Assembly: GCA_965207065.1 (NCBI GenBank)
Contig: OZ242260.1
Coordinates: forward strand, 2,560,001 to 2,624,000
Length of the DNA stretch: 64,000 nucleotides
DNA from: a bacterium
GTDB taxonomy: Bacteria > UBA8248
Direction of reading: 5' to 3'
Both the position numbers and the translations under genes were made by a program. Of this stretch, positions 6,312 through 46,824 are shown in pieces (the stretch's first letter is position 1; the number at the start of each line of letters is the position of its first letter). Below the pieces are notes generated by a model. That model did not search any database, had not been told where the DNA came from, and saw nothing but the letters and a program-made list of their open reading frames with translations.

Positions 6312-7271
6312 TCATGATGGATGCACCACGTTTTGAGGGTTGCCCGAGAATGCGGCGGCAATGTTTTCCACCGACATCAGAAGTCCTGCTTCCGTCACCT
6401 CGGGCGTGATGCCCGCATTGTGCGGGGAGAGAACCACGTTGTTCAGTTTCCCGAGTGGATGGTTCGGGGGCAGAGGCTCCTGGTCGAATACGTCGAGACC
6501 CGCCGCAGCCAGAGCTCCGTTTTCCAAAGCCGAAATGAGCGCCGCTTCATCTACTATGGGTCCACGGGCGGTGTTCACCAGAATGGTATCCGGCCCCATG
6601 CGGGAGAACGCCTCGGCGCCGACCATGCCGATTGTGTCCGCCGATTGCCGTACGTGTATCGAGACGACATCGGACCGTTCATACAAAGTGTTCAAGTTGA
6701 CGAACTCAAGACCTACCTCCGCAGCGAACTCATCGTCTGGATGAAAAGTCCAGGCGATGAGTTTCATTCCGATACCGGCGGCGATGCGGGCTGTCTGACG
6801 GCCGATGGCGCCAAGGCCGATGAGGCCGAGCGTTTTTCCGTTCAATTGCGTCATCTGCCCCCGCGGCCACTCGTCTGCCCGCATGGCGGTATCGTTTCCG
6901 GGTATCTGGCGCGCCGCCGCCATCATCAGGGCCAGGGTGTGCTCGGCCACGGAAACGGCGGCCACGCCCGGCGTGTTTGAAATAATGACGCCTGCGCTCT
7001 CGGCCGCGCCTAAATCGACGTGGTCCGTGCCCGTTCCCCAAATTGAAAGTACCTTGAGAGCACCGCAATTCGAGAAAAAATCCGCGTCGAACTTGCAAAA
7101 AGCACGGATGTTGATGATGCCGTCCGCGCCTGAAACGCGCTTCAGCAACTCTTCAGGCGTTTGCGGGTTTGAGGTGTGGATATCCGCGTCCCCGATTTCG
7201 CGTAGCCGGGCCTCGGCGGCGCTGCCCATGAAAACGGAAGGATAGTCATCTGGTACGACGATTCGGTTCAT
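6312..7271 (-). CDS. D-isomer-specific 2-hydroxyacid dehydrogenase family protein
   Basis: GKTLGLIGLGAIG, LVNTARG, AGLDVFDQEP, SPHNAG. Confidence 0.9.
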   Translation of the reverse strand: MNRIVVPDDYPSVFMGSAAEARLREIGDADIHTSNPQTPEELLKRVSGADGIINIRAFCKFDADFFSNCGALKVLSIWGTGTDHVDLGAAESAGVIISNTPGVAAVSVAEHTLALMMAAARQIPGNDTAMRADEWPRGQMTQLNGKTLGLIGLGAIGRQTARIAAGIGMKLIAWTFHPDDEFAAEVGLEFVNLNTLYERSDVVSIHVRQSADTIGMVGAEAFSRMGPDTILVNTARGPIVDEAALISALENGALAAAGLDVFDQEPLPPNHPLGKLNNVVLSPHNAGITPEVTEAGLLMSVENIAAAFSGNPQNVVHPS

Positions 7272-7391
7272 AAAATTGCCCCTTAATAATCACGAGAATA
7301 CGAGTGTTCCAGCGGTTCTCATACACAGCCCTTGCGTGCATAATATCGTCTTTCTTCCGCCATTCTTATGACACCAAAGGAGACAAAACAA

Positions 7392-7946
7392 GTGGAACCT
7401 CTTGATCCGCGTAAAGACAGTACTGTTCCCGGTGAGCGTGCCATCGACAAGCCCGAACTCCCCACGCAGGGCTATGCTTTCACCATGTCCGCCGACACCG
7501 AAACGATAGAGGGAAAGGGACAGCTCAAGTTGGGGACGCACAGGCATTTCGAAGTGTATTGCGACGAGCCGCCCCGCATCGGCGGGGAGGATTCCTACCC
7601 CCAACCGCTTTGCTATATCGCCATGGGAGTCGGGTTCTGACTCCTCACCCAGCTTGCGCGGTACGCGCATATGATGAAAGTGTCTTTTACGCACGCCAAG
7701 GTACAAGTAGATTTCGATTATTTTTTGAGGGGTTCCGTTCTCAAAGGCACGGTAAATTCCGGCTGCAACGAGGTCCGAACGCACTTTGAGGTGGAATCCG
7801 ATGAATCGGCGGAGAAAATACTCGCGGTGATCAAGAATGCGAAGCAAGGATGCTTCGCCGAACAAATGGTGACGGCCGCCGTTCCACTGAAAAGCACAGT
7901 GAACTTGAATGGCGAATCGGTCTCGCTGAGCGGCGTCACGGCATAA
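7392..7946 (+). CDS. OsmC/Ohr-family peroxiredoxin-like protein, probable selenoprotein (in-frame TGA 7638-7640 = Sec)
   Basis: ORFs 7368-7640 and 7671-7946 share a frame; joined they read 'CDEPPRIGGEDSYPQPLCYIAMGVGF-U-LLTQLARYA...KQGCFAE', the OsmC layout with TGA at the first catalytic Cys; GTG 7392 follows AAGGAG. Confidence 0.85.
7655..7669 (+). promoter_or_regulatory. Candidate bacterial SECIS hairpin
   Basis: TGCGCG-GTA-CGCGCA; G-starting loop about 20 nt 3' of the TGA. Confidence 0.7.
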
Positions 7947-8052
7947 AACGCATGACTTCCTGACTTTGGAAGCAAGCTTTTGCTTCTCGTGATTCCAGGA
8001 GCCCGCCACTTGAACCTGGAGAGGGCCGCTTCGTCCTCCCTGGAAGGGGGAT

Positions 8053-9561
8053 TTACGCGGTGTCCGCGTTCGCCTGGGCGGCGCATTGTCCCGCTGCGGT
8101 GCCCGCCAGCTTGCCGTAGACGGAGCCCAGGGTAAGCCCCGCGCCTCCCGGGTAGTTGAAGTAGTAGACGCCGCCCACGAGTTCGCCCGCAGCGAACAGC
8201 CCGGGGATTATTTCATTTTCGGTGCTCATGACTTCCGCTTTGGGCGTCACGCGGATGCCGCCGAAGGTGAACGTGATTCCCGTGGTGACTGCGAATCCGA
8301 TGTAGGGCGGTTCGTCGATGGGAAGCGCCCAGTTCGATTTCGGGGGGTCGATGCCTTTCGTGCCTTTTCCGTCTTTGATGGTCGGGTTGTATTCACCCGG
8401 CTGGATGGCGGCGTTGTATTCCTGAACGGTTTTGACGAACTCGTCGACATCGATCTCGAGTTGACTCGCGAGTTCTTCCAGCGTGTTGGCCTCGCCCTTG
8501 GTGACTTCGCGGATACGATATTCGTCGCGCAGCATATGAACCGTTTTCTGGTCGAATATCTGAAAGGCGGCCCGCTGGGGTTGCTGGAGAATGTTCCGGC
8601 CGTATTTGGCGTAGGTATAGTTTCTGAAATCGGCTCCCTCATCCACGAAGCGCTTCCCCTCGATGTTCACGATGATGCCGAACGGATAGGAGTGTTTCTG
8701 GTAGGATTCTCCTACCGTGAGGTCACCGAAGGGCGGGGCGTTCAAGTCCCAGGCGACGGCGTGGCACCCGCTCCAGTTGCCATAGGGCTGCGCTCCGATA
8801 TCGAGCGCCATCTTGATGCCGTCGCCCGTGTTGTAAGGGGTGCCGCGGACTTTTGCGAGTTCCCAGCCCGGACCCAGGTAGCGGCAGCGCATCTCCGCGT
8901 TCGCCTCGAAACCGCCCGACGCCAGAACGACCCCGTGGGTTTCGACCGTGTAGGGTCCATCGGGGCCTTTGACTTCCACACCCGTCACGCCGCCCATCGG
9001 GTCCGTGATGAGACGCATCGCCTTCGAAGCGTAGCGAATATCCACTCCGGCATTGTTCGCGGCATCGAGGAGTGAATCGATGAGGCCCCGTCCACCGCCG
9101 ACGATCTCGAGAACCAGTCCTCCCCAGAAGCGCATCTTGCCGTCGACTTTGAATGCCTGCCGCCCGCTTGCGAGGATGAGCCGCAGGCCCTTGGACTGCA
9201 TCCATTTCAGTGTCGGAAACGACTCGTGGATGAGGACGGAGGCGAGGTCGCCGTCGGTCTGGTATTCGGTCAGCAGGGCAAGATCGTCAAAGAATTTCTC
9301 CGACGTGTAGGGGTCGATCTCGATGTTTTCCTTCTCGGCGTCGGAAAGATCGGGTACGAGCGAGTAGATGTCTTCGATACTGTTGAAGGCAAAGCGGAAG
9401 AGGCCTCCCGAGAAAGCGGAATTCCCGCCGCGCCATGCTTCGGGCGCTTTCTCGAGCACCAGCACATTGGCCCCCTGGTCCCGCGCCGCCAGCGATGCGC
9501 AAAGAGCGGCGTTGCCGCAGCCCACGACGACGACATCATATTTCTCTGTAGCTTTCGGCAT
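8053..9561 (-). CDS. tcuA: FAD-dependent tricarballylate dehydrogenase TcuA-family flavoprotein
   Basis: 'DVVVVGCGNAALCAS', 'RGGNS', 'VRGTPYNTGDG', 'RFVDEGADFRNYTYAKYG', 'GITFTFGG', 'NYPGGAGL' motifs typical of TcuA/CobZ. Confidence 0.8.
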   Translation of the reverse strand: MPKATEKYDVVVVGCGNAALCASLAARDQGANVLVLEKAPEAWRGGNSAFSGGLFRFAFNSIEDIYSLVPDLSDAEKENIEIDPYTSEKFFDDLALLTEYQTDGDLASVLIHESFPTLKWMQSKGLRLILASGRQAFKVDGKMRFWGGLVLEIVGGGRGLIDSLLDAANNAGVDIRYASKAMRLITDPMGGVTGVEVKGPDGPYTVETHGVVLASGGFEANAEMRCRYLGPGWELAKVRGTPYNTGDGIKMALDIGAQPYGNWSGCHAVAWDLNAPPFGDLTVGESYQKHSYPFGIIVNIEGKRFVDEGADFRNYTYAKYGRNILQQPQRAAFQIFDQKTVHMLRDEYRIREVTKGEANTLEELASQLEIDVDEFVKTVQEYNAAIQPGEYNPTIKDGKGTKGIDPPKSNWALPIDEPPYIGFAVTTGITFTFGGIRVTPKAEVMSTENEIIPGLFAAGELVGGVYYFNYPGGAGLTLGSVYGKLAGTAAGQCAAQANADTA

Positions 9562-9839: not shown

Positions 9840-11156
9840 ATGGAAGCAACTGCCTACCAGAGTTTCATGGAAGAGCGAATCACCCATATCACCGAAGCCT
9901 GTACGCACTGCGGAAAGTGTTACGAAGTCTGCCCGATGGTCACGTATTCAGAAGCCAAGGGAGCAGAACCCGAGCGGGTGACGAAATCGGTGATCGACAT
10001 CATCAATGATCGCCCTCATGAGCCGGATGGGGCGCTTTGGGCCAAAGCCTGTCAGAAAAGCGGCGTTTGCATCGAGGCCTGCCCGGAGGACGTCAACCCG
10101 CGTGAAATGCTCTCCTACGCCAAGCTCAAACTCCAGAACGTCGAATCTGAGAAAGCGGACATTCAAGAGGCCGGCAAGACTTATTTTCAGGATATGAGCC
10201 GCAAGATCCGTTTCATGGCCGCGCTCCAGCTCGAACCCGAGCTATTCAGAGGTCTCACTGCCGTGCGGGGACCCGGGGCAAGCAAAGTGGATGCGGTGTT
10301 TTATTTCGGATGCAACATCCTCCAGACGCCTCACATCCTGCTCTCCTGTATCGATGTTTTCGACCGGCTCGGGCTGGACTATGAGGTCGCCGGCGGCGTG
10401 GGCCATTGTTGCGGCATCAACCACATCAGGCGAGGGGATCTTGAGGCGGGAGGAGAGATGGGGGCGCGTTCGCTTGCGCATTTCAAATCTTATGAGCCGG
10501 AACGGGTCATTACGTTTTGCCCCACTTGCCAGATGCAGTATTCCGAATATCAACACCTCTACACTGGAAAGCCGGTTCTCCCGATGGCGGGTGACTCTGA
10601 TCATATCGAGGAGGAAATCCTGCCGTTCATCCACATTACGCAATACCTGGTGGATAATCTGGAAACTTTACGGGGAGAATTCACGCAAAAGGTGGAAAAG
10701 CGCGTGGCCGTGCACCTGCACGGGGGAACCGATGGCGTCGAGGAAAACGTCATAAAAATCCTGCGAGCGGTCCCCGGACTCGAGTTCGTGGAGATTGAAC
10801 AGTTATCGGATCATGCCTATCAGTGCCCTACGCTCGTCATTCCCGAGGCGAAAGCGGCGATGCGCGAGAAGCTTATGGACTCTGCGCGCCGCGCCGGGGT
10901 GGATTCCCTGCTCACCGTTTACCATAGCTGCCACCGGGAGCTATGTGATCTCGAAAAGGGGGAGCCCTTTGAAATCGAGAATTTCATGACGATTCTCGGC
11001 CAGGCCATGGGTTTTGAGTATCCCGATTACACGAAGACGTACAAAATTTATGAGGATATCGATCTGGTCATCCAGGAGGCGGAGGACACGCTGCGCGCCT
11101 TTGGCATGGCGCCCGAGAAAATGCGGGAGCAGCTTCAAACGGCGCTCTACGGCTGA
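9840..11156 (+). CDS. Fe-S oxidoreductase (4Fe-4S dicluster plus CCG domains; HdrD/GlpC-like)
   Basis: CTHCGKCYEVCP, CQKSGVCIEACP, FYFGC, HCCG, FCPTC, YHSC motifs. Confidence 0.85.
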   Translation: MEATAYQSFMEERITHITEACTHCGKCYEVCPMVTYSEAKGAEPERVTKSVIDIINDRPHEPDGALWAKACQKSGVCIEACPEDVNPREMLSYAKLKLQNVESEKADIQEAGKTYFQDMSRKIRFMAALQLEPELFRGLTAVRGPGASKVDAVFYFGCNILQTPHILLSCIDVFDRLGLDYEVAGGVGHCCGINHIRRGDLEAGGEMGARSLAHFKSYEPERVITFCPTCQMQYSEYQHLYTGKPVLPMAGDSDHIEEEILPFIHITQYLVDNLETLRGEFTQKVEKRVAVHLHGGTDGVEENVIKILRAVPGLEFVEIEQLSDHAYQCPTLVIPEAKAAMREKLMDSARRAGVDSLLTVYHSCHRELCDLEKGEPFEIENFMTILGQAMGFEYPDYTKTYKIYEDIDLVIQEAEDTLRAFGMAPEKMREQLQTALYG

Positions 11157-12090: not shown

Positions 12091-12477
12091 TCAACCCCGC
12101 TGCGCCATCTCGATGCTGATGTTGTCAGGCCCCTTGATGAAGGCGATCTTCACGCCCGGGCGTATCTCCCAGGGCTCGCAAATCCACTCGGCGCCCTTTT
12201 CGGTCAGCTCTTTTTGCGCCTCGTCCATGTCGTCGACCCGGAGCCCGAAATGGTCCAGCCCGTAGCGGGGGTCTGAGCCCGTCCGCACCGGGTCTTCTCC
12301 CTCCGCCCGGCCCGAGACGAGGAACACCATGCCGTTCAGGTCCATGTTGAACGAGGGCGCGCCGCCCAGCTTTCGCTCCTCCACGACGGTGGCGCCGAAC
12401 ATGTCGATCCAGAAATCGCGTGCGGCGTGCGGGTCTTCGCTCCTGAAGTGAAGGTGGTCGTATGAGTATCTGGCCAT
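12091..12477 (-). CDS. VOC/glyoxalase family protein
   Basis: YDHLH, GLDHFGLRVDDMD, AFIKGPDNISIE. Confidence 0.9.
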   Translation of the reverse strand: MARYSYDHLHFRSEDPHAARDFWIDMFGATVVEERKLGGAPSFNMDLNGMVFLVSGRAEGEDPVRTGSDPRYGLDHFGLRVDDMDEAQKELTEKGAEWICEPWEIRPGVKIAFIKGPDNISIEMAQRG

Positions 12478-12602
12478 GCGGGAATCCCCTCTCGATAAGC
12501 TGTGAACCTCGTGTCTGACGACGAGTCCGGTTGTCTATCGGCTTGATAAGCCTTGGATTGTAAGGATGGCGGCCGGGAGTGGCAAGGGGCTGGAAGCCAG
12601 GT

Positions 12603-13244
12603 CTAGCCGGGCCCGCCCTCTTCTTCCTGTATGAGTTTCTCCGCCTCGGCCATCTCGTGGAAAAGCGCGCAAGTAGCTGAAAAATCACGTTCCAGCTTGT
12701 CGAAAAGCTCCCTGATTTGCCCGGGCGAGGCGACTTTCGAGAGCTGGCCGTGAACCGCCTCCCAGGAGAGCGTCCCGTGCTCTCCGCGCTTGAAATCCGT
12801 CTCCTCGCTCGCCGTGATGGCGTCGTACAGCTCGTTTTCGTGTTCGAGTATATCCCGGAGCACCGGCTCGTAGTTCGGGTCGTTCGATTCCAGGTAGCGC
12901 TTGAGGTAGTGCCTGAAAGCGGGCTCTTTTTCCACCGGCTGCGGGTCGGACATCTCGCGCATGACCCGGCAGGTGACGGAGAAATCCTTCTCCAGACGCT
13001 CGAAGAGCTGCTCGATGTGGAAGGGGGTGAGAATGTCCGTAAGTTCAGTAAAAACAACGTGCCACATGTGGGAAAGCCGCTCTCCGCGGGCCGATTCCGC
13101 GCCCTCGCCGATGGTGCTCTCGTCATAGATTTCGTGCTCGTGTTCGAGCAAGTCCATGAGCACCGGCTCGTAGTTCGGGTCGGCCGAATGGAGGTAGCGC
13201 ATGAGATAGGGCTTGTATTTCCGTACTTTATGGCGTCTGGGCAT
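12603..13244 (-). CDS. Hypothetical acidic protein made of two tandem ~100-aa repeats
   Basis: 'YLMRYLHSADPNYEPVLMDLLEHEHEIYD...LFERLEKDFSVTC' repeated as 'YLKRYLESNDPNYEPVLRDILEHENELYD...LFDKLERDFSATC'; GAGGA RBS. Confidence 0.75.
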   Translation of the reverse strand: MPRRHKVRKYKPYLMRYLHSADPNYEPVLMDLLEHEHEIYDESTIGEGAESARGERLSHMWHVVFTELTDILTPFHIEQLFERLEKDFSVTCRVMREMSDPQPVEKEPAFRHYLKRYLESNDPNYEPVLRDILEHENELYDAITASEETDFKRGEHGTLSWEAVHGQLSKVASPGQIRELFDKLERDFSATCALFHEMAEAEKLIQEEEGGPG

Positions 13245-13906
13245 TGCGGGTTCCTCTGATGAAAAGCTACCGGATATGACGTCCCATTATACCACCAAAC
13301 CGGGGCGCCTCGCTACGGGGTGATGCGCGTCGCCGGGGCGATTCCCCGTAACCTGCTGATATGAAAGAGGATACTGTCTCTAAAAAAAATGGAAGCCGGT
13401 TTTCGTGTCCGGGGGAATATCACCGCAGCATTTGCGCGCATTTGCCGTCATCGCGCAAGGCGCGGCTCATGGCAGAATTCCCCTGCGCCGCACTTCCGCG
13501 GCGTCATTTCCCAAAAAATTCAATTTCCGGAAATTTATCGAAAAACCCCGTGAATTTATCGATATTTATCTAATTTATCGGTTACAAAACCCGACCGATG
13601 AGGAAGGGTTTGACCCGGCCGGGGAGGGTTTCCCTGTTCTCGAACGAACCGCGCGGCTCCGACATCATACGCGGTTTCTTCCTCCGGCCCTTGACCGCAA
13701 ATGCGGGAAATTGCGCGCCGGACGCTGCCGGGAAACTCGATTCCGACTGGAGAAGCAGGGGCTGCAACGCCCCCGGGAGGAGCCATCATACGGCGCGCCA
13801 ACCCCTCAGGATACCTCCTTGCGATTCATCCCGGCGCACCGCAAATGCGGGGTAATGCGCGCCCCGCGTGTTGTGGCAGGTCCATGAAGAGGCAATCTCG
13901 ACGGAG

Positions 13907-14112
13907 GGGGATGTTGAAAAAGCCCCCTTTTTCGGGGATAGAGGAGACGCCCCTATCGACCTGAAAACCAACCCCCCCTACCCCCCCTTGTCAGGGGGGT
14001 AAGAAAAAACAAAAGCCTCTCTACCCGGTGGGGGGTGTTGCCTTTTTATACCCCCCTGACAAGGGGGGGTAGGGGGGGTTGCTCTTTGGACAAAGGCTTT
14101 TCCAACAGCTCC
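13907..14112. mobile_element. Miniature inverted-repeat element with internal palindrome
   Basis: Terminal IRs GGGGATGTTGAAAAAGCC / GGCTTTTCCAACAGCTCC (15/18 match) enclosing the long palindrome 13969-14081. Confidence 0.65.
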
Positions 14113-14124
14113 GAAGAGGGGGGG

Positions 14125-14151
14125 TGATCCTCAGGCGGCGGCGCCGCTCGC
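14125..14151 (+). repeat. 27-bp direct repeat, copy 1
   Basis: TGATCCTCAGGCGGCGGCGCCGCTCGC, identical at 22115-22141. Confidence 0.9.
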
Positions 14152-14472
14152 CGTGGCCGCAGGCCGCCTATTGCCCGCCGCGGGTATGAAGCGCACCGGC
14201 GGAGGTGTTTCTCGGCCTCTCCTGGCGAAGGTTAAGCCTGACTGGAGGCAGGCTGTTGCGGGTCGAGATTTGGAAGACGCTCCGACAGGGACTCGCCGGG
14301 ATGCGCGGGAATGATAATGAATCCGCTTTCGCTTTGATAACATGGCATGCAAGGCGGGTTTCGAACGAAAATGTGATTAAAGAACTTTACCTCATGATAT
14401 CAATGGGATAGAAGGGTACTACCGCCGATGAAGAAGACTCGACGCATGTAAGCGGGTCAAACAGACATACAA

Positions 14473-14790
14473 ACGCCCTCCTGCGAACTCTGGCAAGTAT
14501 CACAGGAGGGCGCTATGAGGCCGCTCCCTTGTGCGGCCGTTTCCGTCCGGTATTCAGGAGGACTCAACTCCTTGAAACACGGGACAGCATTTCGTGAAGG
14601 GGAGCCGGAAATCAGGCATCGTGAAGGAAGGCTGCGACACATTCCATGCGAGGCGCAGTTTCCGGCTCCCAAAAGCGTGTTGAACAGGGGCTGCCCGTTG
14701 TTCCCGTTCCCGGCTCGAGGACTCAAACTCATAGCAAGGAGCGGTACAGTTTGCTCTATCACGAGGGAAGCAACCAACGGGCAACCCCCT
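14473..14790 (-). ncRNA. Candidate structured RNA (five consecutive stems)
   Basis: Back-to-back inverted repeats whose C.A mismatches on + become G.U pairs on -; motif GAGT(T)TGAGTCCTC occurs twice. Confidence 0.45.
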
Positions 14791-14850
14791 TTTTCGCTCT
14801 CCGCCCTGGCCCTGGGCTCTAAGCCCCGGGGCCATAGGCGTTGTTCTCTG

Positions 14851-16509
14851 TTACCTGTTCGCACCGAACGCCCCGATGAAGGCGGCGTCACCCCCTGATT
14901 CGGTTTGCTTGGTAGCGTAAAATGTTCCCGCGACCGAACCGGGAGCATCGGGAGTGTACATTGTTGTTTCGGTTGTTATTGGAGGAACTGCGGTATTCGT
15001 CATCCTGTCCGTTTCTGGTTTAGCTCTAAGCCCGAAAAACTGGCCTTTCCAGTTGCCGACGTAGGGGACACCCGCGACAGTTCCGGCAGTCCCAGCCGTA
15101 AATGACTCGGCTATACCAGTGTCTGCAAGATCAACTTTTTGTAATTCGATGCTGCCCGGAATCGTTTGTCCGCCGGCGTTGATGCTCGTGACCTTGCCCT
15201 CGATGCTGCCGGTAGCGGCACTATTTACTGGATTCTGAAATTCTGCGGTGAGTTCAACGCTCGCTTGGAAATAACTCGTATCTCCTCCCGTGAGGTAGGC
15301 ACCGTTCGCATCCCCTCGATAGGTGGCTGTTATGGCATCGCCCGCTTCAACAAAACTGCTGATTGTGCCGAAACCTGTAGTCGTTTCACACGTACTAGTG
15401 GTGGTTGATGAGGCTCGCATTCCACTATTTTGAGACACGGTACAGAAGTTTTTGCTGCCGGTGATGGGTTCACTCCCATATGCAAAAGCCGTTATTCCGG
15501 AACTTGTAAGCCATATTCCGGCGAGCATGTAATCGGTGTCGTTAAGTACGTGATCAGTTTCTTTTCCAGTATCTTGTCCATCTCCATCATATAAGGGGGT
15601 GGCGGGATTATCTCCCAATTTGGTTTGCGCAATGTCCGTGTAGGCATTCACGAAAACAGTGTCATCGGCATTTTTCATATCGAAGCCATATTGAAGCTTG
15701 CTCGGTCCATTAAGGGTGTCCCTCGTATTTGATCCGAAAGGACTTCCTGAAATCTCTAGCTGGACCGACCGAACCCCCGGTTTCCTGGTTGAACCGGTCA
15801 CGGTATCCGCAGGATATAGAGCACAAGGTGCGGCGCATGAGGTGCCGTCCGTAGTAGTGCCGGTCTCTGATATAACAAGGCTATCTGGCGTAAGATCGCC
15901 TATAATGGTGTCAACGACGCGCTTGTTGTCTATCAACTCCATGATGAGCGAGGAGTTGTTCGTGAATGCCGTTACAGTTTGTCCGGGAGGGGGAGTCATA
16001 GGGGTTTGCAAGGCAATTTGGATGCTCTCCACCCCCGTTTGCGCCGTCAACAGGTCTGCCAGCGCCGTCCTCGCTTCCGCCAACGCCATTCCAGCCGCCT
16101 CAGGCGTGGTGGCCGCATTCACCGCGGCGTTCGCGGCCGTGATGTCCGCCAGGGCGTCCTGCGCGGCGAGCAGATAATTGATCGCGAGATCTATCTGCGC
16201 ATCCGTGGCGTCCAGGTGGGCATACACCGCATTCGCCGCCGTGCGCGCCGCTCCCTCCCGCCTACGGGCGTCGTCGACGATGACGCCGAGATCATCCTGC
16301 GCTTTTTCAATCTTTTCCTCGTCCGTCGGCCCCGGGTCCATGCAGTCCGGGTACGTTCCGACTTGAGGCGACGTGCATTCCATCACGGGCGGCATCTCTT
16401 CTTCTTCCATCATGGCGCTGCCGCCCCCGCCGCCGCCGCCGCAACCGGAGGCAAATGCCGCAATGCACACGACAAATACCATCAATCCCAAATTTCTGAG
16501 CATTCTCAT
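14851..16509 (-). CDS. Surface lipoprotein with TbpB-like C-terminal beta-barrel
   Basis: Lipobox ASG-C plus poly-Gly; Ala-rich helical stalk; ends 'GNWKGQFFG...VAGTF...IGAFGANR'. Confidence 0.8.
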   Translation of the reverse strand: MRMLRNLGLMVFVVCIAAFASGCGGGGGGGSAMMEEEEMPPVMECTSPQVGTYPDCMDPGPTDEEKIEKAQDDLGVIVDDARRREGAARTAANAVYAHLDATDAQIDLAINYLLAAQDALADITAANAAVNAATTPEAAGMALAEARTALADLLTAQTGVESIQIALQTPMTPPPGQTVTAFTNNSSLIMELIDNKRVVDTIIGDLTPDSLVISETGTTTDGTSCAAPCALYPADTVTGSTRKPGVRSVQLEISGSPFGSNTRDTLNGPSKLQYGFDMKNADDTVFVNAYTDIAQTKLGDNPATPLYDGDGQDTGKETDHVLNDTDYMLAGIWLTSSGITAFAYGSEPITGSKNFCTVSQNSGMRASSTTTSTCETTTGFGTISSFVEAGDAITATYRGDANGAYLTGGDTSYFQASVELTAEFQNPVNSAATGSIEGKVTSINAGGQTIPGSIELQKVDLADTGIAESFTAGTAGTVAGVPYVGNWKGQFFGLRAKPETDRMTNTAVPPITTETTMYTPDAPGSVAGTFYATKQTESGGDAAFIGAFGANR

Positions 16510-16630
16510 TAATTGCCCCCCAAGGCTGGTTCCTTCCAGGAAAACGGAAGGGGCGAGCGGATAAAACGAGATTCAATTTACTGCTTGCGCTTGCGCGGCG
16601 ACGGAACGCCGCGCTCTTAACATCCCCCCG

Positions 16631-16659
16631 GCCACGGGCGTCATGCAGACGCCCGTGGC
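16631..16659 (-). terminator. Perfect 12-bp stem-loop after lipoprotein gene
   Basis: GCCACGGGCGTC-5nt-GACGCCCGTGGC, just 3' of the stop at 16678. Confidence 0.6.
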
Positions 16660-16677
16660 TGAAGGCGTAGTGCTCTA

Positions 16678-18585
16678 CTAGTCAGCCTTCCGCGCGCCGA
16701 ACGCGCCCAGGATGCTGGTCCCGGGAATGACCGAGTTGGCGCCGAAGGTGCCTGCCGCGGTCGTGGGGAATTCGGTTCGAACCGCCACTCCGGCTGCCCT
16801 GTTGGGACCGTAGAACTGTCCGTGCCAGGCGCCCGACATGGCCCTGCCGCCCAAGGTGCCTCCCGTACTACCGCTGAACGTGGTGGCCGCAGCAACACCA
16901 TCGGCGCTAAGCACCGGCGCCCTTCCGAGCGTCAGCGAGCCGTCAACGTCCATGCCGCCAGCCTTGATGTTGGTGATGGATCCGGTGACGGCGCCGAAGA
17001 GTAACGTGTCGGCAACATTGTTTCTGGGATTGGAATCAACACCGCTTCGGCCACCGAAATTGGCCATCAGGCTGGCGTCCGCCTCGAAATACTCGACCAT
17101 ACCGGCCGCCGAATACAGGCCGGTCGCGGCACCATTGTACGTGGCCGAGCCCGTAAGAGCGGCCGGTACGGCGAACGGGTTGTTACCAGCCGCGAAAGCG
17201 GCGGCCGTGGCGGGATTGGTCGGACCATTAGCGTCCGTCCCGGGTACTGCGTTCGGAACGCTCACCCAAACGCCCCAAGCCAGATAGTCGGAGTCTGGCC
17301 TCGTGATAACACCGGGTATGGCGGGCTGGAACACGTAGCCCTGGATCGCCCTGACAACGCCCGTGGCATCCACGCTAATGGAGCAATCAAGTATGGCACC
17401 ACAAAAGAATCGTCCCGACCGAGCCGGATTACCGTCAGTAGGATTCTCATTATACGTTGCCGCAAAATGGCTTCCGTCTCCCGGAATTTCTCCGGTAATT
17501 ACAGCCTGGTCCACTACGGTGTCTAAGTTGCCGTTTGCGTCTGGTGCTTCGTCCAAGGCGTTGTTCCCATTGAGATCTCTCAGATTAATAGCACCCGCAG
17601 CATTGTAGGCCTGTCCAGGCGGATTGATGTCCGTGTAGATGACGGCATTCTCTCTCCAGCCGGCTGGGCCCGATCGGGACCTGGTCATTTCGGCGCCTTC
17701 CCAGCCGCCGCCCGGCTTCTCGCCGCTCATCACCAGCGCCGCCGGGGTTTCGCCTCTCCTCAGCGTGTTGACGGCGAGTGGGGCGGGGGGGGCGTTGCCG
17801 TTGTTGCCGGTGACCGCGTTTACCGTAAATCTGGGTGCGGTACCGGTATGACTCGCCGCTACCGTGACCTGTCCGATGTGAACGGGAGGGACAGCATTAT
17901 TTACTCTGCCTTGGTTGATGGTCGCGATAGTTTCAGCACCATTGTCAGCATCGTTATCGGTATTGACTCCGGCATTGTTCGCGATAGCCGCTCCCGCCGC
18001 GCTATTCAAGGCCGCGCCCACTCTTCCCGCATTGGATATCGGAGCGGGAGCAGGTACGCCAATGAGCGCTGCGCTGTCGATGGCGCTTTTGTTCGCGGCC
18101 GCGTTCGCCACTGTCGTGATTCCCAAACCGCGCGTCATGCCGGCTTCCACCGCCATGTCGCGGGCCGCCTCGGCCGCCATCTGGTGCGTCATGGCGTCTT
18201 CAGAAGTCGTGGCCGCCTGCGCCGCTGCGTTGGCTGTACCGGCCGCCGCAGCTTGCACTTGAGCGTTTGCCATCGCCACGGGGTCCACCGCGCCGTACAC
18301 GGCCGCCATCGCCGCCGTAAACGCCGCCATGGCCGCATCCTGCGCGTCGCTCAGAGCCGTTGCTTCGGCCATTTCCGCGGCAACGTCTGCGGCGGAAGTG
18401 CAGGAACCGTCCGCGTTATACCGGCCGCCGTCACCCTCGCACATTTCCTGCGGGGTGGGGTCCGGCATGGCGGGCGGCTCTTCAACGGCAGCCGTTCCGC
18501 CGCCGCCGCCGCAGCCGGCAATCGCGAAGCTCGCCGCAATCAGAAGGGCGATAAAGATGTTTCCGAACTTTCCTGAGTTTCTCAT
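16678..18585 (-). CDS. Surface lipoprotein with TbpB-like C-terminal beta-barrel
   Basis: ATG 18585 after AAGGAG; lipobox IAG-C plus poly-Gly; 'DSDYLAWGVW', 'ATYNGAATG', 'GAWHGQFYG', 'LGAFGARKAD'. Confidence 0.82.
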   Translation of the reverse strand: MRNSGKFGNIFIALLIAASFAIAGCGGGGGTAAVEEPPAMPDPTPQEMCEGDGGRYNADGSCTSAADVAAEMAEATALSDAQDAAMAAFTAAMAAVYGAVDPVAMANAQVQAAAAGTANAAAQAATTSEDAMTHQMAAEAARDMAVEAGMTRGLGITTVANAAANKSAIDSAALIGVPAPAPISNAGRVGAALNSAAGAAIANNAGVNTDNDADNGAETIATINQGRVNNAVPPVHIGQVTVAASHTGTAPRFTVNAVTGNNGNAPPAPLAVNTLRRGETPAALVMSGEKPGGGWEGAEMTRSRSGPAGWRENAVIYTDINPPGQAYNAAGAINLRDLNGNNALDEAPDANGNLDTVVDQAVITGEIPGDGSHFAATYNENPTDGNPARSGRFFCGAILDCSISVDATGVVRAIQGYVFQPAIPGVITRPDSDYLAWGVWVSVPNAVPGTDANGPTNPATAAAFAAGNNPFAVPAALTGSATYNGAATGLYSAAGMVEYFEADASLMANFGGRSGVDSNPRNNVADTLLFGAVTGSITNIKAGGMDVDGSLTLGRAPVLSADGVAAATTFSGSTGGTLGGRAMSGAWHGQFYGPNRAAGVAVRTEFPTTAAGTFGANSVIPGTSILGAFGARKAD

Positions 18586-18917
18586 CTTGTTGTTCTCCTT
18601 GTTGATGGTAAGTAAAACTGCCGCTTCTCTTTTTGCTTCATTAGTCTTGGTGGCTCCGGTACGCCAAAACGCACCACGTCCTGGCCAGAAGTCATTTACA
18701 ATTTCAGTCAAGTATACAATATTGATATGTATTTAATATGAGGATATGGATATAAATAATGTTATTATCGTGAGGATTTGCGTTTTAGTGCATTTTTGCC
18801 GCCGACATGGCTTCTCCTGTACAGGGAACCGCTCTCTCCAGTGCGGTCCGGGCGTGGCCGTCGACAGGCAGGGGCGGGGTGAATTTCGCCCCGGCGCGCA
18901 AAGCAGCGTGCGGTGCC

Positions 18918-19250
18918 CAGGGAAACCGGCCGGCCGAGGCGGGAGATCGGGACGCTACGCACGCCGGGTCCGCTCCGCGGTGGAACTGCGCAGGGCGCCG
19001 GCATTGCGCCTCGACGACGGACGCGAGGTAATCCTCGAGAATCCCAGGAACGCCGGGACGCTGCGCGCCGCGCAGGTCGAACTTCCGGTACACGACGGGC
19101 GCAACATCCGGATGCCGATCAACGCGATCCCGATCCGCTCAGGCGACGCTGAGGTCAATTCGGTGACGGTCACCATGCAGGACCTGGCGCCGCTCGGGGA
19201 ACTCGAGCGGTTGCGGGCGGAGCACCCCGACATGCTGAGCTGCGAACCGA
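18918..19250 (+). pseudogene. Internally deleted relic of a paralogue of the downstream hybrid kinase
   Basis: 'DGREVILE...LRAAQVELPVHDGRNIRMPINAIPIRSGDAEVNSVTVTMQDLAPLGELERLRAE' parallels the PAS-HisKA junction of 19425-21773; N-terminal 'ETGRPRREIGTLR' relic lies in another frame. Confidence 0.85.
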
Positions 19251-19424
19251 CCGCGGCGAACGGCCGCCAATCCGCCCTGCAACCACGCAAACGACTTCCG
19301 CCATTGCATAGAAGTATACGAAAGTGATATGCAATAAACGTGTTATACTGGTTTTAGATAGTGTATTTATCGTGAGGAAAGGATACGAACGCTTTTTTGT
19401 CCTCATTCCGTGGGGGGTGCGGCG

Positions 19425-33142: not shown

Positions 33143-36100
33143 TCAAAAGCTGAATTTCATTTTCATTTCCGCGAGGAAGTCGTAGGTGCTGTTTCCCGCC
33201 GTCGTGAACCCGAGCTGCCCCTGAAGGAGCGGCACGCGAGCACCCAGTCGCATGCTGCCGCCGAGACCCAAGCGGACCCGGGTCGGGTGGGCGCGCGCCG
33301 ACAATTTCGTGCTCGCGACGATAATCGATTTCTCTGCGCCCAGGAACTTGTGCTCGATGTCCACCGACGCGAACAGGCGGCGCGTATCCTCCTCGCCCTT
33401 CTCCACAAGAAGGCCCACGCGGCCCACCATGCTCTCGGCGTCTTCCACCGAGATCGCGCCGCCTCCGGTGGACGCCCCGGCGGTGAATTCATCCAGTGAG
33501 AACGAAGAAAAGGAGAGTCCTGTTCTCGGCGTAAGGAGCAGACCGCCCATTTTGGTGCGGCGGCCGACCTCGATTCCCAACGCATAGTCGGAACCGGAAA
33601 CGTCCGACGCGATGGCGCCCAGGGAGGCGGCATTCATATCCAGGCGGTGCCAGCCTATCGCAATCTGGCCGTCGACATAGTAGCGCCCGTTATCCATAGT
33701 GCCGGAAAGACTCAACCCCTCGCCCGCCAGCGTAATTTCGCCGACGCCTCCGACATCCACGGAACTGCGGCGGTGATGCGCCGCTACGCCGAGAGTGACG
33801 TGCTTGCCTGTGGGAATGTCGAGCCCGCCTTCCAGCCGATAGCCATCGTAATCGTAGGTGGTCCCGCCGTATGTCGAGGTCTTGGCGCTCCACTTGCCGC
33901 CGCCGTATGTGGGACGGACCCAGAAACCCTGGGTGTTGCGCACGGCAAGCATCCTCTCCTGGTAAGTCGCGAGGCGGGCCTGATCCATCAACACGAATGG
34001 CAGCGCCTCGTACACCTGCGCACGCGAGCCGTATTCGCTTGTCACGGAGATGTCACCGTTATCATCTTGCAGGCTGACGTCCCAGACGCCGAGCGGCATC
34101 TTGCTTCCTTCAGTCAGTGGCAGGGCGCGATTGCCCGGCTGAAGGTATATCCGGGGGGCGCGCGAGGTTCCGTCGGCGCCAGGAAGATTCCTGATTGCGC
34201 CCTGAATCCGTTGTTCGATGTTCCCGCCCGGTTCAATCACCACTGCGACGTCGGCGGGCGCGTTGGGCCTTGTGCTCCATGGTTCGCCGAGGATCGCCAC
34301 ACCCGATTGCGCCGAGATCCGCGCGTGCGGACCGACGATCACCGTACCGCCGCCTTCGAGTTTGATTCCTGCGTGTCTGACGTTGGTTACTTCCCGGGTC
34401 AGGGGGTCCGTTATCGTCTGGAGCAAGGGGCCGGTCGACTCCACCTCGCCGAACACCCTCGCCACGTTGTTCGTGACGGGGAAATCACCGTTGCCCGTGC
34501 CTTCGGCAAAATAAATGCCGGTATATCCGGATACCCTGCCGGTGCGCGCGACCGTCACGTCGCCGCCTGCGACCGGATGAACACCGACGCCGAACTGCCC
34601 GGTGACTTCACCTGCGACGTGAACGAAGTGTTGGCGCCTGCCGTCGACAATGCCGCCCGTGGCCAGCCTGATGCCGTCAATAAAACCTGTCACGGAGGCT
34701 CCCTGCGATACGGAAACGCGAACCTCGCCGTTTCTCATACTGCTCGGTATGGGATAGCCGGTGTGAATGCCATAGCCGTCGAAGGACGTGATGCTTCCGC
34801 CCGTCACTTCAATCAGGATGTCGCCGGCGTTGTAGCTCACCTCGAATTCACGGGCTCTGTTCTTGTAGGCTTCCGTGTACTCGGGTGACGTCGCCAACGT
34901 CAAGTTATCGAGCACCTCCTTCAGACGATCCTCGCCGGTGTCATCCAGGATTTCGCGAATGACCTCCGCTTCCGCAGGCGAGAGGACCTTTACGGGAAGA
35001 GGATTTCCTCGTGCGTCGACTGCGCCGAGCGCACCCGCCAGCACTTGCGCAGGCGTGAGTTCGGGGGGAGAAGGGATCTGCAGCTGAGCGGCAAGGATCG
35101 TCAACTCGTCAGGCGTCAGGATTTTTGGCGTGGCGACATGAACCAGCAGATCCACCAGGTCGACCGCGTATGCCCGGATCCCCGCTCCGGCAGGTGGAAT
35201 TGGTGGTTTGAGGAGTCCATTGACGATGCCGAGGTTGATCCCGAGGGAGAGCGATTGTGGGTCCTGCTGGCCCGGCAGGCCAATGATATCCGGATCACCG
35301 ACCCGTATCGTTCCGCTCGAGACGATATGGATCAGGGGCTCCTCACGGGCCCCGTCGTTCATTATCTCCACGGGAGCTTGCCTCCCGCCGTCCTCTCTGG
35401 TGTAGCCGATATGTCCGCTTCTGCGGCGGGCCCATGCGAGGATGCCCTCCGTCAAGGAACCACCCAGGATTGTCCCTTTGTTGTCGATTACGATGCGGCC
35501 GCTGTTCACATCGTTCGTCAAGAAGGCGGCAATGCCCCTGCCAAGTCCTGGCGCTCCTCTCAAGACGGCGCCTTCCTCGACCCGAACGGTTACGGAGCCG
35601 TCGTGATGCTGGAATCCTTGCACGGCGCTGCTTCCCTCGCGTTTCGCCGTGATGTCGGCGCCCTTTCCGACTGTGATGGAGATGTCGCCTTTGCCCAGAT
35701 GCTCGGCGTTCACGCCATAAGCGTTCTGGCCCCCCGTGATGATCGGGCCGCCGTTCACCGTGACGTCCAACGAGCCGGCCCGGTACTGTCTCACGTTGAT
35801 GCCGTGGCCTCCTACACCGTCAGTCTGGATTCGCGTGTGACCTTCGAGCGTTACGGAAACGGCGGAATCCGCCGCAGACTCCACGGAAATGCCGTGATCC
35901 ATCACCTCGATGCTTTGTCCGTTCGGCAACGGCGCCTGGAGGCCCTGTCCGATGATCGTAATGGTGCCCGCCTCATCCGAGCCGCCCATGATCGTCAGGT
36001 CCAGTCCATCCTGCGGCACGTCCTGCGGGGAGTAATGGATGCCGGTGTAATCAGACCCCGTGCAGACCTGAGCAGCGGGATTCCCGCCGACGGGCTCGCA

Positions 36101-36286
36101 AATCGCTTCACGGTTCTGCGCCAGGGCTGGTCCGGCTGCCAGGAAGGATACGAGAACCACGGTCGCGATACTTCGCACCGGAATCCGCGATTCGAAGCAT
36201 CTCATTGTGGCTCTCGCTCTGCAGAAGAGATTCCAGGAGACAAAGGTTCGCAACCGGCAGCTCATGAGAGAGGTGGTTTTTTTCAA
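33143..36286 (-). CDS. Autotransporter (type Va) with beta-helical passenger
   Basis: Extended signal peptide ending ALA-Q; Gly/Ile/Val beta-helix repeats; 'RAQVYEALP' linker; beta-barrel ending MKFSF. Confidence 0.9.
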   Translation of the reverse strand: MKKTTSLMSCRLRTFVSWNLFCRARATMRCFESRIPVRSIATVVLVSFLAAGPALAQNREAICEPVGGNPAAQVCTGSDYTGIHYSPQDVPQDGLDLTIMGGSDEAGTITIIGQGLQAPLPNGQSIEVMDHGISVESAADSAVSVTLEGHTRIQTDGVGGHGINVRQYRAGSLDVTVNGGPIITGGQNAYGVNAEHLGKGDISITVGKGADITAKREGSSAVQGFQHHDGSVTVRVEEGAVLRGAPGLGRGIAAFLTNDVNSGRIVIDNKGTILGGSLTEGILAWARRRSGHIGYTREDGGRQAPVEIMNDGAREEPLIHIVSSGTIRVGDPDIIGLPGQQDPQSLSLGINLGIVNGLLKPPIPPAGAGIRAYAVDLVDLLVHVATPKILTPDELTILAAQLQIPSPPELTPAQVLAGALGAVDARGNPLPVKVLSPAEAEVIREILDDTGEDRLKEVLDNLTLATSPEYTEAYKNRAREFEVSYNAGDILIEVTGGSITSFDGYGIHTGYPIPSSMRNGEVRVSVSQGASVTGFIDGIRLATGGIVDGRRQHFVHVAGEVTGQFGVGVHPVAGGDVTVARTGRVSGYTGIYFAEGTGNGDFPVTNNVARVFGEVESTGPLLQTITDPLTREVTNVRHAGIKLEGGGTVIVGPHARISAQSGVAILGEPWSTRPNAPADVAVVIEPGGNIEQRIQGAIRNLPGADGTSRAPRIYLQPGNRALPLTEGSKMPLGVWDVSLQDDNGDISVTSEYGSRAQVYEALPFVLMDQARLATYQERMLAVRNTQGFWVRPTYGGGKWSAKTSTYGGTTYDYDGYRLEGGLDIPTGKHVTLGVAAHHRRSSVDVGGVGEITLAGEGLSLSGTMDNGRYYVDGQIAIGWHRLDMNAASLGAIASDVSGSDYALGIEVGRRTKMGGLLLTPRTGLSFSSFSLDEFTAGASTGGGAISVEDAESMVGRVGLLVEKGEEDTRRLFASVDIEHKFLGAEKSIIVASTKLSARAHPTRVRLGLGGSMRLGARVPLLQGQLGFTTAGNSTYDFLAEMKMKFSF

Positions 36287-36407
36287 TTTGATTACTCCTG
36301 AGTTCCCGTGTTCGCTGAATTAATGATGGTTGAAAGATGCAGACCGGGCATGGGGACGCGCCTCATGACGCCCGCTTCCTGGCGGCAGAGACCGACGACG
36401 TCGATTC

Positions 36408-44557: not shown

Positions 44558-45064
44558 CTACTCGGCGCTCATGACGAACTGATGAACGGGGCTCAACGCC
44601 GTCTTCTCGCTCAGGCAGTTCCTCGTCTTCGCCGTTCGCAGCCGGATGGTGGCGAAGGTCGATTCGATGGGGTTCGTCGTCCGAAGACTCCGCCAGTACG
44701 CCGCCGGGCAATCGGCGGTTTTTGGGTACTTCGCCTCCCAGGTGGCACAGAAGCGCTCAAACGCCTCCTTTGCATGCGCGCGGGTGTCCGGCCCCATATC
44801 TCGTGCAGCATCGACTTTGCTTCGCCCTGAACCCGTTTGGGCAGCCTGTCGAGCATGTTCGCCGTCTTGGGCGCCCCCAGCAGCGCGGCGCACCAGTTCG
44901 CTCAACTCGTCCTGGAAGGCTGGATTCCGTAAGGGAATCGTCGTATCTTCTCTCATGGTGGAGCATCTTCTGTGTGCTGAATGACCGGGCTCTGGACAAC
45001 CCTGTTTCAGCAGGATGCGCCGCCTTCTTCAATTCAGCTCATACACAACTTCTGACAGCAACTC
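44558..45064 (-). mobile_element. IS256-family relic with multiple internal deletions
   Basis: 'DELSELVR', 'AKYPKTADC', 'YWRSLRTTNPIESTFATIRLRT' motifs compressed into about 400 bp; end-like sequence GAGTTGCTGTCAGAAGTTGTGTAT at 45064-45041. Confidence 0.85.
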
Positions 45065-45078
45065 GTCGGGGAGTGCCC

Positions 45079-46824
45079 ATGGATCCAGGCTGCGACCGAA
45101 TCACCACCGAGGTCATCGCGCACCGCTTCGCCGCCGCGGCCGACGAGATGATGGCCACCCTCGTCAAGACCGCGTATTCCCCGAACATCAAGGAGCGGCG
45201 TGACTGCTCGGTCGCGATCTTCGACACTGCGGGCAACCTCCTCGCCCTGACCGCCATCGCCCCCCTTCACCTGAGCTCGCTCCTCGGCCTCGTGGAGAAC
45301 ATCACCCGGCGATACCCCCTCGACCGCTTTCGCCCCGGCGACGGCTTCCTTACGAACGATCCGTACGTGGGAGGCGGCTCGCACCTGCCGGACCTGACGC
45401 TCGCAAGCCCCGTCTTCTTCGATGGCCGGCCGGTCGCGTTCGTCGCCAACATCGCCCACCACTCCGACATCGGCGGCAAGGTGGCGGGGAGCGAGAGCGC
45501 CGACTGCACGAGCATCTTCCAGGAAGGGCTGCGAATCCCTCCCGTCAAGCTGCTGGACGAGGGGGAGCTGTGCACCGACATACTCGCGTTCGTGCTCCTC
45601 AACTCGCGCACCCCGCGCGAGCGCGAGGGCGATCTGCGGGCCCAGATCGCGACCAACGCCACCGGGGTCCGCCGGGTGCAGGAGTGCTTTGCTCGCTTCG
45701 GAGCCGATAGCGTGCACCGGGGCGCGAGAGCCCTCCTCGACTACGCCGAGTCGCGCACGCGCGCCGAGATCGCGAGGCTGCCGGACGGAACCTACGAGAA
45801 CGAAGAAGTGGTCGACAACGACGGCGTGGCCGACGGCATCGTCCGCCTCCGCGTCAAGATCACCATTCGCGTCGATAGCATTCACTTCGACTTCACGGGC
45901 ACCGACGGACAGATCGCAGGGGCCCGGAACATGCCGCTCGCGGCCACCCTGTCCGGCGTCTACTACGCGGTCAAGGCGGTGACGGACCCGGCGCTGCCGC
46001 CCAACTCCGGGTACTTCCGCGCCATCAGCGTCACCGCGCCGGAAGGCACGGTCCTCAACTGCCGCCCCCCCGCCGCCGTCGGGGATCGGGGCGCGACCGG
46101 CAACGTGCTCGGCGACCTGCTGCTGGGCGCGCTCGCCGACGCGGCGCCGGACCGGGTGATGGCCGGCTGCGGTCCGCTTCACGGGCTTATCTTCAGCGGC
46201 GTCGACCCGCGCCGGAACGAGTACTTCGTCGACTACGAGACCTACGCGGGAGCGTCCGGCGCGCTTTCCGCGCTCGACGGAAAAGACGCGGTCCGGGTCC
46301 ACGTTTCGGGCGCGGCCAACCTGCCCATCGAATCCGTGGAGCAGGAGTTCCCGCTGACCGTCGGCCGCTACGAGCTGATCGCCGACTCGGGAGGTCCCGG
46401 ACGGCATCGCGGCGGCCTCGCGACGCGCCGCGACGTCACCATCTGGGCGGAGCGGGCGAGGCTCGCAGGCCGCGGACTGCGCCAATCCCGAGGCGCGTCC
46501 GGGCTGTTTGGCGGAAGTTCGGGGTGTCCCGGCGTCTTCGTTCTGGACCCGGGCGGAAACCGCGAGACGAAGCTTCCGGGCTCGTTCTCGGAGCTCAAGG
46601 TGGACGCGGGAACGACGGTTCGGGTCGACACCCCGTCCGGCGCCGGCTTCGGCGACCCGTGGGAACGCGATCCGGAGAGGGTGCGCGACGACGTGGCCGC
46701 CGGTAAGGTGACCGCACCCGCGGCGGAGCAGAGCTACGGCGTCGCGCTCGTCCGCGGAAGCGTCGACGCCTCCCGGACCGCGGCCTTGCGGGAGGCCCGC
46801 CAAGATTCGAACCGTGGCGCCTGA
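45079..46824 (+). CDS. Hydantoinase B/oxoprolinase family protein
   Basis: TAYSPNIKERRDCS, NDPYVGGSHLPD, HHSDIGG, FQEGLRIPP, DSGGPGRHRGG; ATG 45079 after GGGGAG. Confidence 0.93.
   Translation: MDPGCDRITTEVIAHRFAAAADEMMATLVKTAYSPNIKERRDCSVAIFDTAGNLLALTAIAPLHLSSLLGLVENITRRYPLDRFRPGDGFLTNDPYVGGGSHLPDLTLASPVFFDGRPVAFVANIAHHSDIGGKVAGSESADCTSIFQEGLRIPPVKLLDEGELCTDILAFVLLNSRTPREREGDLRAQIATNATGVRRVQECFARFGADSVHRGARALLDYAESRTRAEIARLPDGTYENEEVVDNDGVADGIVRLRVKITIRVDSIHFDFTGTDGQIAGARNMPLAATLSGVYYAVKAVTDPALPPNSGYFRAISVTAPEGTVLNCRPPAAVGDRGATGNVLGDLLLGALADAAPDRVMAGCGPLHGLIFSGVDPRRNEYFVDYETYAGASGALSALDGKDAVRVHVSGAANLPIESVEQEFPLTVGRYELIADSGGPGRHRGGLATRRDVTIWAERARLAGRGLRQSRGASGLFGGSSGCPGVFVLDPGGNRETKLPGSFSELKVDAGTTVRVDTPSGAGFGDPWERDPERVRDDVAAGKVTAPAAEQSYGVALVRGSVDASRTAALREARQDSNRGA

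Follow-up and report, generated by a model that had tools for sequence, protein, structure and literature searches.

Selenocysteine-containing relatives of the OsmC proteins have been on record since 2005, when an "OsmC-like protein" was listed among 15 new selenoprotein families in the Sargasso Sea selenoproteome (Zhang, Fomenko and Gladyshev 2005; PMC1088965). Tables 1–3 of that paper give these proteins a UxxT motif and place them in COG1765, and SECIS-like hairpins whose small apical loop contains a G are described there in general terms. Two reviews list the OsmC-like family with the same motif (PMC9312934; PMC13188914). Members combine a selenocysteine (Sec) in the first redox position with a second, conserved cysteine, and the family is curated in NCBIfam as NF041052, "OsmC-related (seleno)protein". 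In Table 2 of BSepDB (PMC13326102), three metagenome-assembled genomes labelled Nitrospinota, Nitrospinaceae or Nitrospinae (GTDB UBA8248), with 48–54 selenoprotein genes, stand among the ten bacteria richest in such genes, as do two Dehalococcoidia with 46–49.

Two other systems offer a comparison for the locus described here, the Ohr/OsmC hydroperoxide reductases and the SECIS element of Escherichia coli fdhF. Peroxidase activity is established for Ohr/OsmC proper. The fdhF SECIS has an essential loop G and U at +23 and +24 from the UGA and, like the hairpin considered below, it lies in the coding region just 3′ of the UGA and presents a G and a U at its apex.

The segment 7392–7946 on the plus strand of the 64 kb stretch of bacterial DNA analysed in this study (the window) is very probably a single gene for a 184-residue OsmC-family selenoprotein of NF041052, in the COG1765/YhfA-like branch, in which an internal UGA does not act as a stop (Table 1). 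It is a member of a selenoprotein family that is already described and curated, and is not new. On the plus strand an ORF at 7368–7640 (90 aa) and a second at 7671–7946 (91 aa) share one frame and are separated only by the TGA and ten sense codons, LLTQLARYAH, so that the sequence at the UGA reads U-L-L-T and conforms to the UxxT motif. No Shine-Dalgarno-like purine run could be seen by eye upstream of ATG 7671. The preliminary description of this DNA had noticed the two ORFs in one frame, the missing ribosome-binding site of the second, the perfect hairpin TGCGCG-GTA-CGCGCA and the second cysteine, and we confirm all four in the sequence; the hairpin was also recovered by folding.

Two start codons come into question. 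An alternative start at ATG 7368 would give a protein of 192 aa, and this codon has no purine-rich stretch upstream. The exact start is likely to be GTG 7392, which we prefer because it is preceded by AAGGAG, because one orthologous locus (L016) has an in-frame TGA between the equivalents of ATG 7368 and GTG 7392, and because the start of a paralogue, an ATG preceded by GGAGG, lies one codon off the GTG 7392 position. An arrangement of the form aaaggagac...GTG is found in nearly all of the 22 orthologous loci. One of them (L021) seems to start at the upstream ATG, and the start is therefore not uniform among orthologues. The best-supported start agrees with the 184-residue protein with Sec83 and Cys154 proposed in the preliminary description. 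A promoter upstream of the OsmC-like gene is weakly suggested by the consensus match listed in Table 1.

Table 1. Position of the OsmC-like selenoprotein gene, its elements and its neighbours in the window
Feature	Position	Strand	Details
2-Hydroxyacid dehydrogenase gene	6312-7271	-	upstream, divergent
Sigma-70-like promoter match TTCTCA-17-CATAAT (putative)	7316..7344	+	9/12, consensus scan only; divergent intergenic region
Shine-Dalgarno-like AAGGAG	7377..7382	+	9 nt ahead of GTG 7392
OsmC-like selenoprotein CDS (predicted)	7392..7946	+	184 aa from GTG 7392; stop TAA 7944-7946
UGA read as selenocysteine (predicted)	7638..7640	+	Sec83 from GTG 7392; residue 91 from ATG 7368
SECIS-like hairpin	7655..7669	+	stem 7655-7660 / 7664-7669, loop GUA 7661-7663
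Second, presumed resolving, cysteine Cys154 (KQGCF)	7851..7853	+	TGC codon, 71 codons past the TGA
TcuA-like FAD-dependent dehydrogenase gene	8053-9561	-	downstream, convergent; 582 bits vs cut-off 369
CCG/4Fe-4S protein gene	9840-11156	+	next after the TcuA-like gene

Family searches were made with the 192-aa translation read through the TGA (P0001). This joined protein matched NF041052 at 181 bits against a cut-off of 95 (E = 1.1e-53), and the match covers model positions 2–144 of 144, running across the TGA and taking in both halves. The Pfam OsmC profile (PF02566) was matched over positions 1–98 of 100 at 47.7 bits (gathering threshold 27.5; E = 2.1e-12). By sequence the nearest solved structure is an OsmC-like protein, PDB 3cje (E = 3.4e-8, residues 59–175); it is a Cys form, and its cysteines align with both redox positions, that of the TGA and that of the cysteine in KQGCF. 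An AlphaFold2 model computed from a 26-row alignment (A4) of 21 read-through genomic sequences and five Cys homologues reached a mean pLDDT of 85.4. The best Foldseek matches of this model in the PDB were all OsmC/Ohr proteins (2onf, 1lql, 6mjn and 1ml8; TM-score on target 0.71–0.82), and 1n2f, 1nye and others were further matches to the OsmC/Ohr fold, at a probability of 1.00. In the model, position 83 lies on the long central helix 72–94 and Cys154 at the junction of helices 140–153 and 155–161. Column 83 holds Sec or Cys, and column 154 Cys, in all 26 rows of A4, and the residue at the position of Cys154 is Cys in 79/79 aligned relatives.

The predicted protein thus shares with the Ohr/OsmC reductases (P. 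aeruginosa Ohr, 1n2f; E. coli OsmC, 1nye/1qwi) the fold (TM-score on target 0.58–0.82), a redox residue on a long helix and a second cysteine some 70 residues later. It differs from them in that identity is only 12–20%, the first redox residue is Sec instead of Cys, and it belongs to a different branch (COG1765). With the OsmC-like selenoproteins it has in common the UxxT motif, the order of Sec and second cysteine and the SECIS-like hairpin, and we find no essential difference from that family; the window copy adds about 30 residues N-terminal to the NF041052 model, which include a conserved PGERxIDKPELP (window 7413–7451). As PGER(A/P/L)IDKPELP this motif is conserved in the two paralogues and recurs in the linker that belongs to the tandem protein P0003 (see below); model confidence over it is low to moderate.

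Genomic relatives were collected by a scan of one genome per species, which yielded 115 confirmed relatives, and the best 80 were kept. Together with the window these make 81 sequences, and all 81 have TGA at the column. Since one of the two back-translated patterns used for the scan carried a Cys codon at the TGA column, TGA forms were not favoured by the procedure. A strict motif located 71 of the 80 loci, and inspection together with a looser motif the other nine. Protein identity to the window ranges from 38 to 97% among the 80 loci, with conservation on both sides of the TGA; few parts of the gene are as well conserved as the ten codons past the TGA, which agree with the Cys homologues residue by residue. 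The labelled lineages represented are Nitrospinota/Nitrospinaceae, Dehalococcoidia/SAR202/Chloroflexota, Myxococcota, Acidimicrobiales, Candidatus Binatia and Candidatus Rokuibacteriota. In one locus (L080) the frame is disrupted further downstream, and another (L075) is ended by the edge of its contig.

A word-indexed protein search returned six matches, five of them full-length proteins with Cys at the column (GFCLLTQ) and the sixth P0003. HMMER, run against 1.84 billion cluster representatives, returned 636 at E ≤ 0.001, 184 of them at ≤ 1e-10 and 12 at ≤ 1e-30. Among the best 150 of these 636, 112 span the column, and they carry Cys (95), Ser (12), Ala (3) or Gly (2) there, and never Trp. 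Most of the 17 spanning homologues without Cys are two-domain proteins of about 400 aa, and the same is true of most of the Ser and Ala rows. Those of the best 150 that do not span the column comprise 13 that end exactly at it, 21 that begin just after it and four other partial sequences. Such a pattern is the one expected at the sequence level for a Sec/Cys pair whose Sec forms have been halved by gene callers.

These searches bear on several claims of the preliminary description. Its assignment of the protein to the OsmC family is upheld by two profiles above their cut-offs and by the fold matches of the model, and its statement that Sec-containing OsmC-like proteins had been described is borne out by the curated NF041052 and by the tables of the 2005 paper (PMC1088965). 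The comparison of homologues that it proposed for the TGA column gave Cys in 95 of the 112 spanning representatives (best 150 of 636), alongside the invariant TGA of the genomic sequences. Its prediction that standard annotation would split the gene in two holds for many public records: 34 of the best 150 database representatives comprise just one half, cut at the column.

The hairpin begins 14 nt past the UGA and places its loop G and U at +24 and +25 from the U of the UGA, near the positions of the essential G and U in fdhF. It differs from the fdhF element in its shorter stem (6 bp here, up to nine positions in Dehalococcoidia relatives) and its loop of 3 nt; no bulged U is evident, and the recruitment of SelB is here a prediction. 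When the 63 nt that follow the TGA are folded, the hairpin forms the core of the minimum-energy structure, and the energy of that structure is ordinary (z = 0.16 against shuffles). Perfect 6-bp hairpins number 22–34 in the window for each loop size from 3 to 7, and 18 of the 920 plus-strand TGA triplets are followed within 8–25 nt by a 6-bp hairpin with a G early in the loop. By themselves, then, the local features of the sequence are not beyond chance, and it is the comparative data that lift them beyond it. Because these local features are ordinary, the case rests on family and comparative evidence.

That comparative evidence comes from the 60 nt surrounding the TGA, aligned without gaps (A3; 81 sequences, 71 of them distinct), and the hairpin keeps a fixed register there. 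Pair 26–36 occurs as AU in 31 sequences, CG in 21, GC in 16 and GU in one, and is unpaired in two; pair 24–38 is GC in 33, UA in 30 and CG in one, with seven unpaired; and pair 25–37 is GC in 36, AU in eight and UG in one, with 26 unpaired. In the unpaired state of 25–37 A faces A, as is typical of the copies from Dehalococcoidia, in which the stem is extended by two or three pairs below. The covariation score of 0.317 compares with a shuffle mean of 0.077 and was attained in none of 500 shuffles (0/500), while controls in which the 3′ partners were slid by 1–3 columns scored at most 0.111. In the Nitrospinota paralogues a change of the 5′ arm from GCG to GGG, which replaces Ala by Gly, is compensated by a synonymous change of the 3′ arm from GCG to GCC. 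Unaided, RNAalifold recovered no more than the inner four pairs. A permissive Rfam scan of 7560–7760 matched no family, its sole output being a chance RsmY fragment (E = 1.2); to our knowledge Rfam holds no model of a bacterial SECIS.

To separate constraint on the RNA from constraint on the protein, synonymous codon use was compared over 79 distinct coding sequences, a set that excludes L075 and L080. Among 86 conserved degenerate codon columns only two, Arg+7 and Tyr+8, are without synonymous variation: the first is CGG in 79/79 and the second TAC in 78/78. The other three conserved Arg columns use five or six codons each, and the other four Tyr columns use both codons, in ratios from 28:25 to 65:14. 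The two frozen codons form the closing pairs and the loop of the hairpin (CGGUAC). Part of the conservation of the apex comes from the protein, as the apex also encodes the conserved Arg-Tyr. The SECIS-like hairpin that the preliminary description placed 3′ of the UGA is thus conserved, with compensatory changes and frozen apex codons, and its reading of the in-frame UGA as selenocysteine finds support, at the sequence level, in the invariant TGA, the Cys homologues and the constrained hairpin. We regard this as strong evidence that the UGA codes for Sec and that its SECIS is functional, as far as sequence comparison can provide it.

Other readings of the locus have to be weighed against this one. 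Translation could stop at UGA 7638 and restart at ATG 7671, yielding two separate small proteins that associate as the halves of an OsmC domain. Gene callers do list the halves separately, as in the 34 halves among the best 150 of the 636 representatives, and many relatives keep an ATG (MMK) where the second half begins. We nevertheless consider two proteins very improbable, since ATG 7671 lacks a ribosome-binding site and the codons for LLTQLxRYAx are conserved as protein, unlike an untranslated spacer; the break would moreover cut the central helix of the AlphaFold2 model, precisely at the column of the catalytic Cys, and the constraint on the hairpin also argues against a plain stop.

Decoding of the UGA might also yield one of the standard amino acids (Trp, Gly or Cys), whether by reassignment of the code or by near-cognate read-through. 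UGA is indeed reassigned in some bacteria, and the window holds no Sec machinery: NCBIfam and Pfam scans found no selA, selB or selD among its 57 ORFs, ARAGORN found no tRNA-Sec in the 64 kb or in the 40 Nitrospinota loci (L001–L040), and an Rfam scan of the window at gathering thresholds returned tRNA-Val only. Against this, TGA terminates 10 of the 23 family-supported genes in the window and is therefore not reassigned genome-wide; the homologues have Cys at the column and never Trp, the family is curated as a selenoprotein family and a conserved hairpin follows the codon. Little credence can be given to decoding as a standard amino acid on these grounds. The negative searches for Sec machinery in the 64 kb and in L001–L040 count against the Sec reading as well; indirect support for a Sec system in the genome comes from the wealth of selenoprotein genes reported for Nitrospinota-labelled genomes (PMC13326102).

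A pseudogene, or an error of sequencing or assembly, would require a nonsense change at a former Cys codon, TGC or TGT to TGA. The change is of a single base, Cys homologues exist and the relative L080 does carry its downstream frame disruption, yet the chance of this is close to nil: the TGA stands at the same column in 81/81 independently assembled sequences from six labelled lineages, and the protein downstream of it is conserved, the next ten codons being among the best conserved. The sequencing error that the preliminary description had named as a possible refutation is effectively refuted by these sequences. Finally, the 239-aa ORF at 7290–8009 on the minus strand is the longest table-11 ORF here and spans the whole selenoprotein gene, but that it should be the real gene and the plus-strand frames incidental is scarcely credible, given that it has no Pfam or NCBIfam match, that stops interrupt its counterpart in 76 of 79 relatives, near-identical ones included, and that the strong family matches are on the plus strand.

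Returning to a single selenoprotein gene, a working scheme can be proposed. The hairpin at 7655–7669 would recruit a SelB-type elongation factor carrying Sec-tRNA(Sec), and selenocysteine would be inserted at UGA 7638–7640, which would give the long central helix its active-site motif, U-L-L-T; we infer this insertion from the comparative evidence set out above. By analogy with the two-cysteine Ohr/OsmC hydroperoxide reductases, Sec83 would attack a hydroperoxide or another oxidised substrate, Cys154 would resolve the resulting selenenic acid to a selenenylsulfide, and a cellular thiol reductant would regenerate the enzyme. For the OsmC-like selenoprotein, both the peroxidase chemistry and the thiol reductant are suggested by that analogy.

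The Nitrospinota-labelled relatives fall into two gene types, the window type (22 loci, 85–97% identical to the window) and a second type (18 loci, about 67%). All 18 loci of the second type (L022–L039, for example L022:6010–6573) come from assemblies that also gave a window-type locus. The TGA of the second type is at the same column, and its hairpin is compensated, with GGG/CCC in place of the GCG/CGC of the window type. A tRNA-Phe encoded on the opposite strand (for example L022:6592–6667, minus strand) comes after the gene in 16 of the 18 loci, and a gene of the AIR-synthase fold, PurM-like (for example L022:6671–7873, plus strand), likewise in 16 of 18. This latter gene was tried as SelD or HypE and rejected, scoring 89 bits against a cut-off of 125 for SelD and 102 against 252 for HypE; as it is below these cut-offs and the opposite-strand tRNA-Phe separates it from the OsmC-like gene, we do not count it as Sec machinery.

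Tandem forms were also encountered. P0003 (180 aa, from a Nitrospinaceae metagenome-assembled genome) consists of the C-terminal half of an OsmC-like domain, a linker and the N-terminal half of a second such domain, which ends in GVGF; most probably it was cut from the middle of a tandem protein whose gene has two UGA codons. A tandem of the Cys form also exists (P0010, 322 aa). A further thought, to which we would give only a small chance, is that the OsmC-like Sec clade may consist of obligate selenoenzymes whose task is not the general removal of peroxides. It is prompted by the best 80 of the 115 genomic relatives, which are all Sec and none Cys, by the 18 assemblies that keep two diverged Sec paralogues (about 67% identical), and by the Nitrospinaceae relative that appears to fuse two Sec-bearing domains. 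To the same idea belong the hairpin apex CGGUAC, which is frozen across six labelled lineages and would fit a gene that spreads together with its SECIS, and the PurM/SelD-like gene close to the second paralogue (16 of 18 loci), which may point to a role in selenium or sulfur handling.

The genes around the locus were compared among the relatives as well. The TcuA-like gene is kept in 23 of 23 close orthologues; the arrangement is not kept in paralogue or Dehalococcoidia loci. Being kept only in close orthologues, it says little about function. The largest cluster of neighbours was discarded, as it lumped the adjacent dehydrogenase together with antisense ORFs. Of the 40 loci outside the Nitrospinota, 20 have an NHL-repeat beta-propeller gene behind the OsmC-like Sec gene and on its strand (Dehalococcoidia loci, L041–L077; for example L041:6499–8079), and 19 have a 222-aa gene of no known family following it.

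Elsewhere in the window, a list of TGA-joined frames drawn up in the search for a second selenoprotein ran to 210 entries and is uninformative in DNA so rich in GC. The most striking of its candidates, on the plus strand at 33500–36298 (462 and 470 codons around a TGA), was rejected as a selenoprotein: it matches no family and is antisense to an autotransporter gene. The latter is a 1047-aa ORF at 33143–36286 on the minus strand with a C-terminal autotransporter beta-domain (Pfam PF03797, 6.1e-28), and the open frames opposite it look like an artefact of GC-rich sequence. A match to the loose motif at about 34833 lies inside the same antisense region. At 44722–48916 on the plus strand there is a pair of genes for caprolactamase/hydantoinase-like subunits (NF050157 and NF050156), the first of which has a frame that stays open for some 690 codons beyond its TGA stop and there overlaps the second gene, which is read in a different frame. 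Five sizeable ORFs (160–677 aa) at 12125–19327 had no NCBIfam or Pfam match at E ≤ 1e-5.

In conclusion, the locus matters chiefly for annotation. Table-11 gene callers will report it as two fragments of about 90 aa, or as a spurious antisense ORF of 239 aa, where the true product is very probably one selenoprotein of 184 aa, and the same split recurs in many public records (34 of the best 150). Beyond this, the gene adds a well-supported example of an OsmC-like selenoprotein from lineages labelled Nitrospinota and Dehalococcoidia, and it offers a clean case of a probable SECIS element in which the synonymous sites of the apex are fixed.
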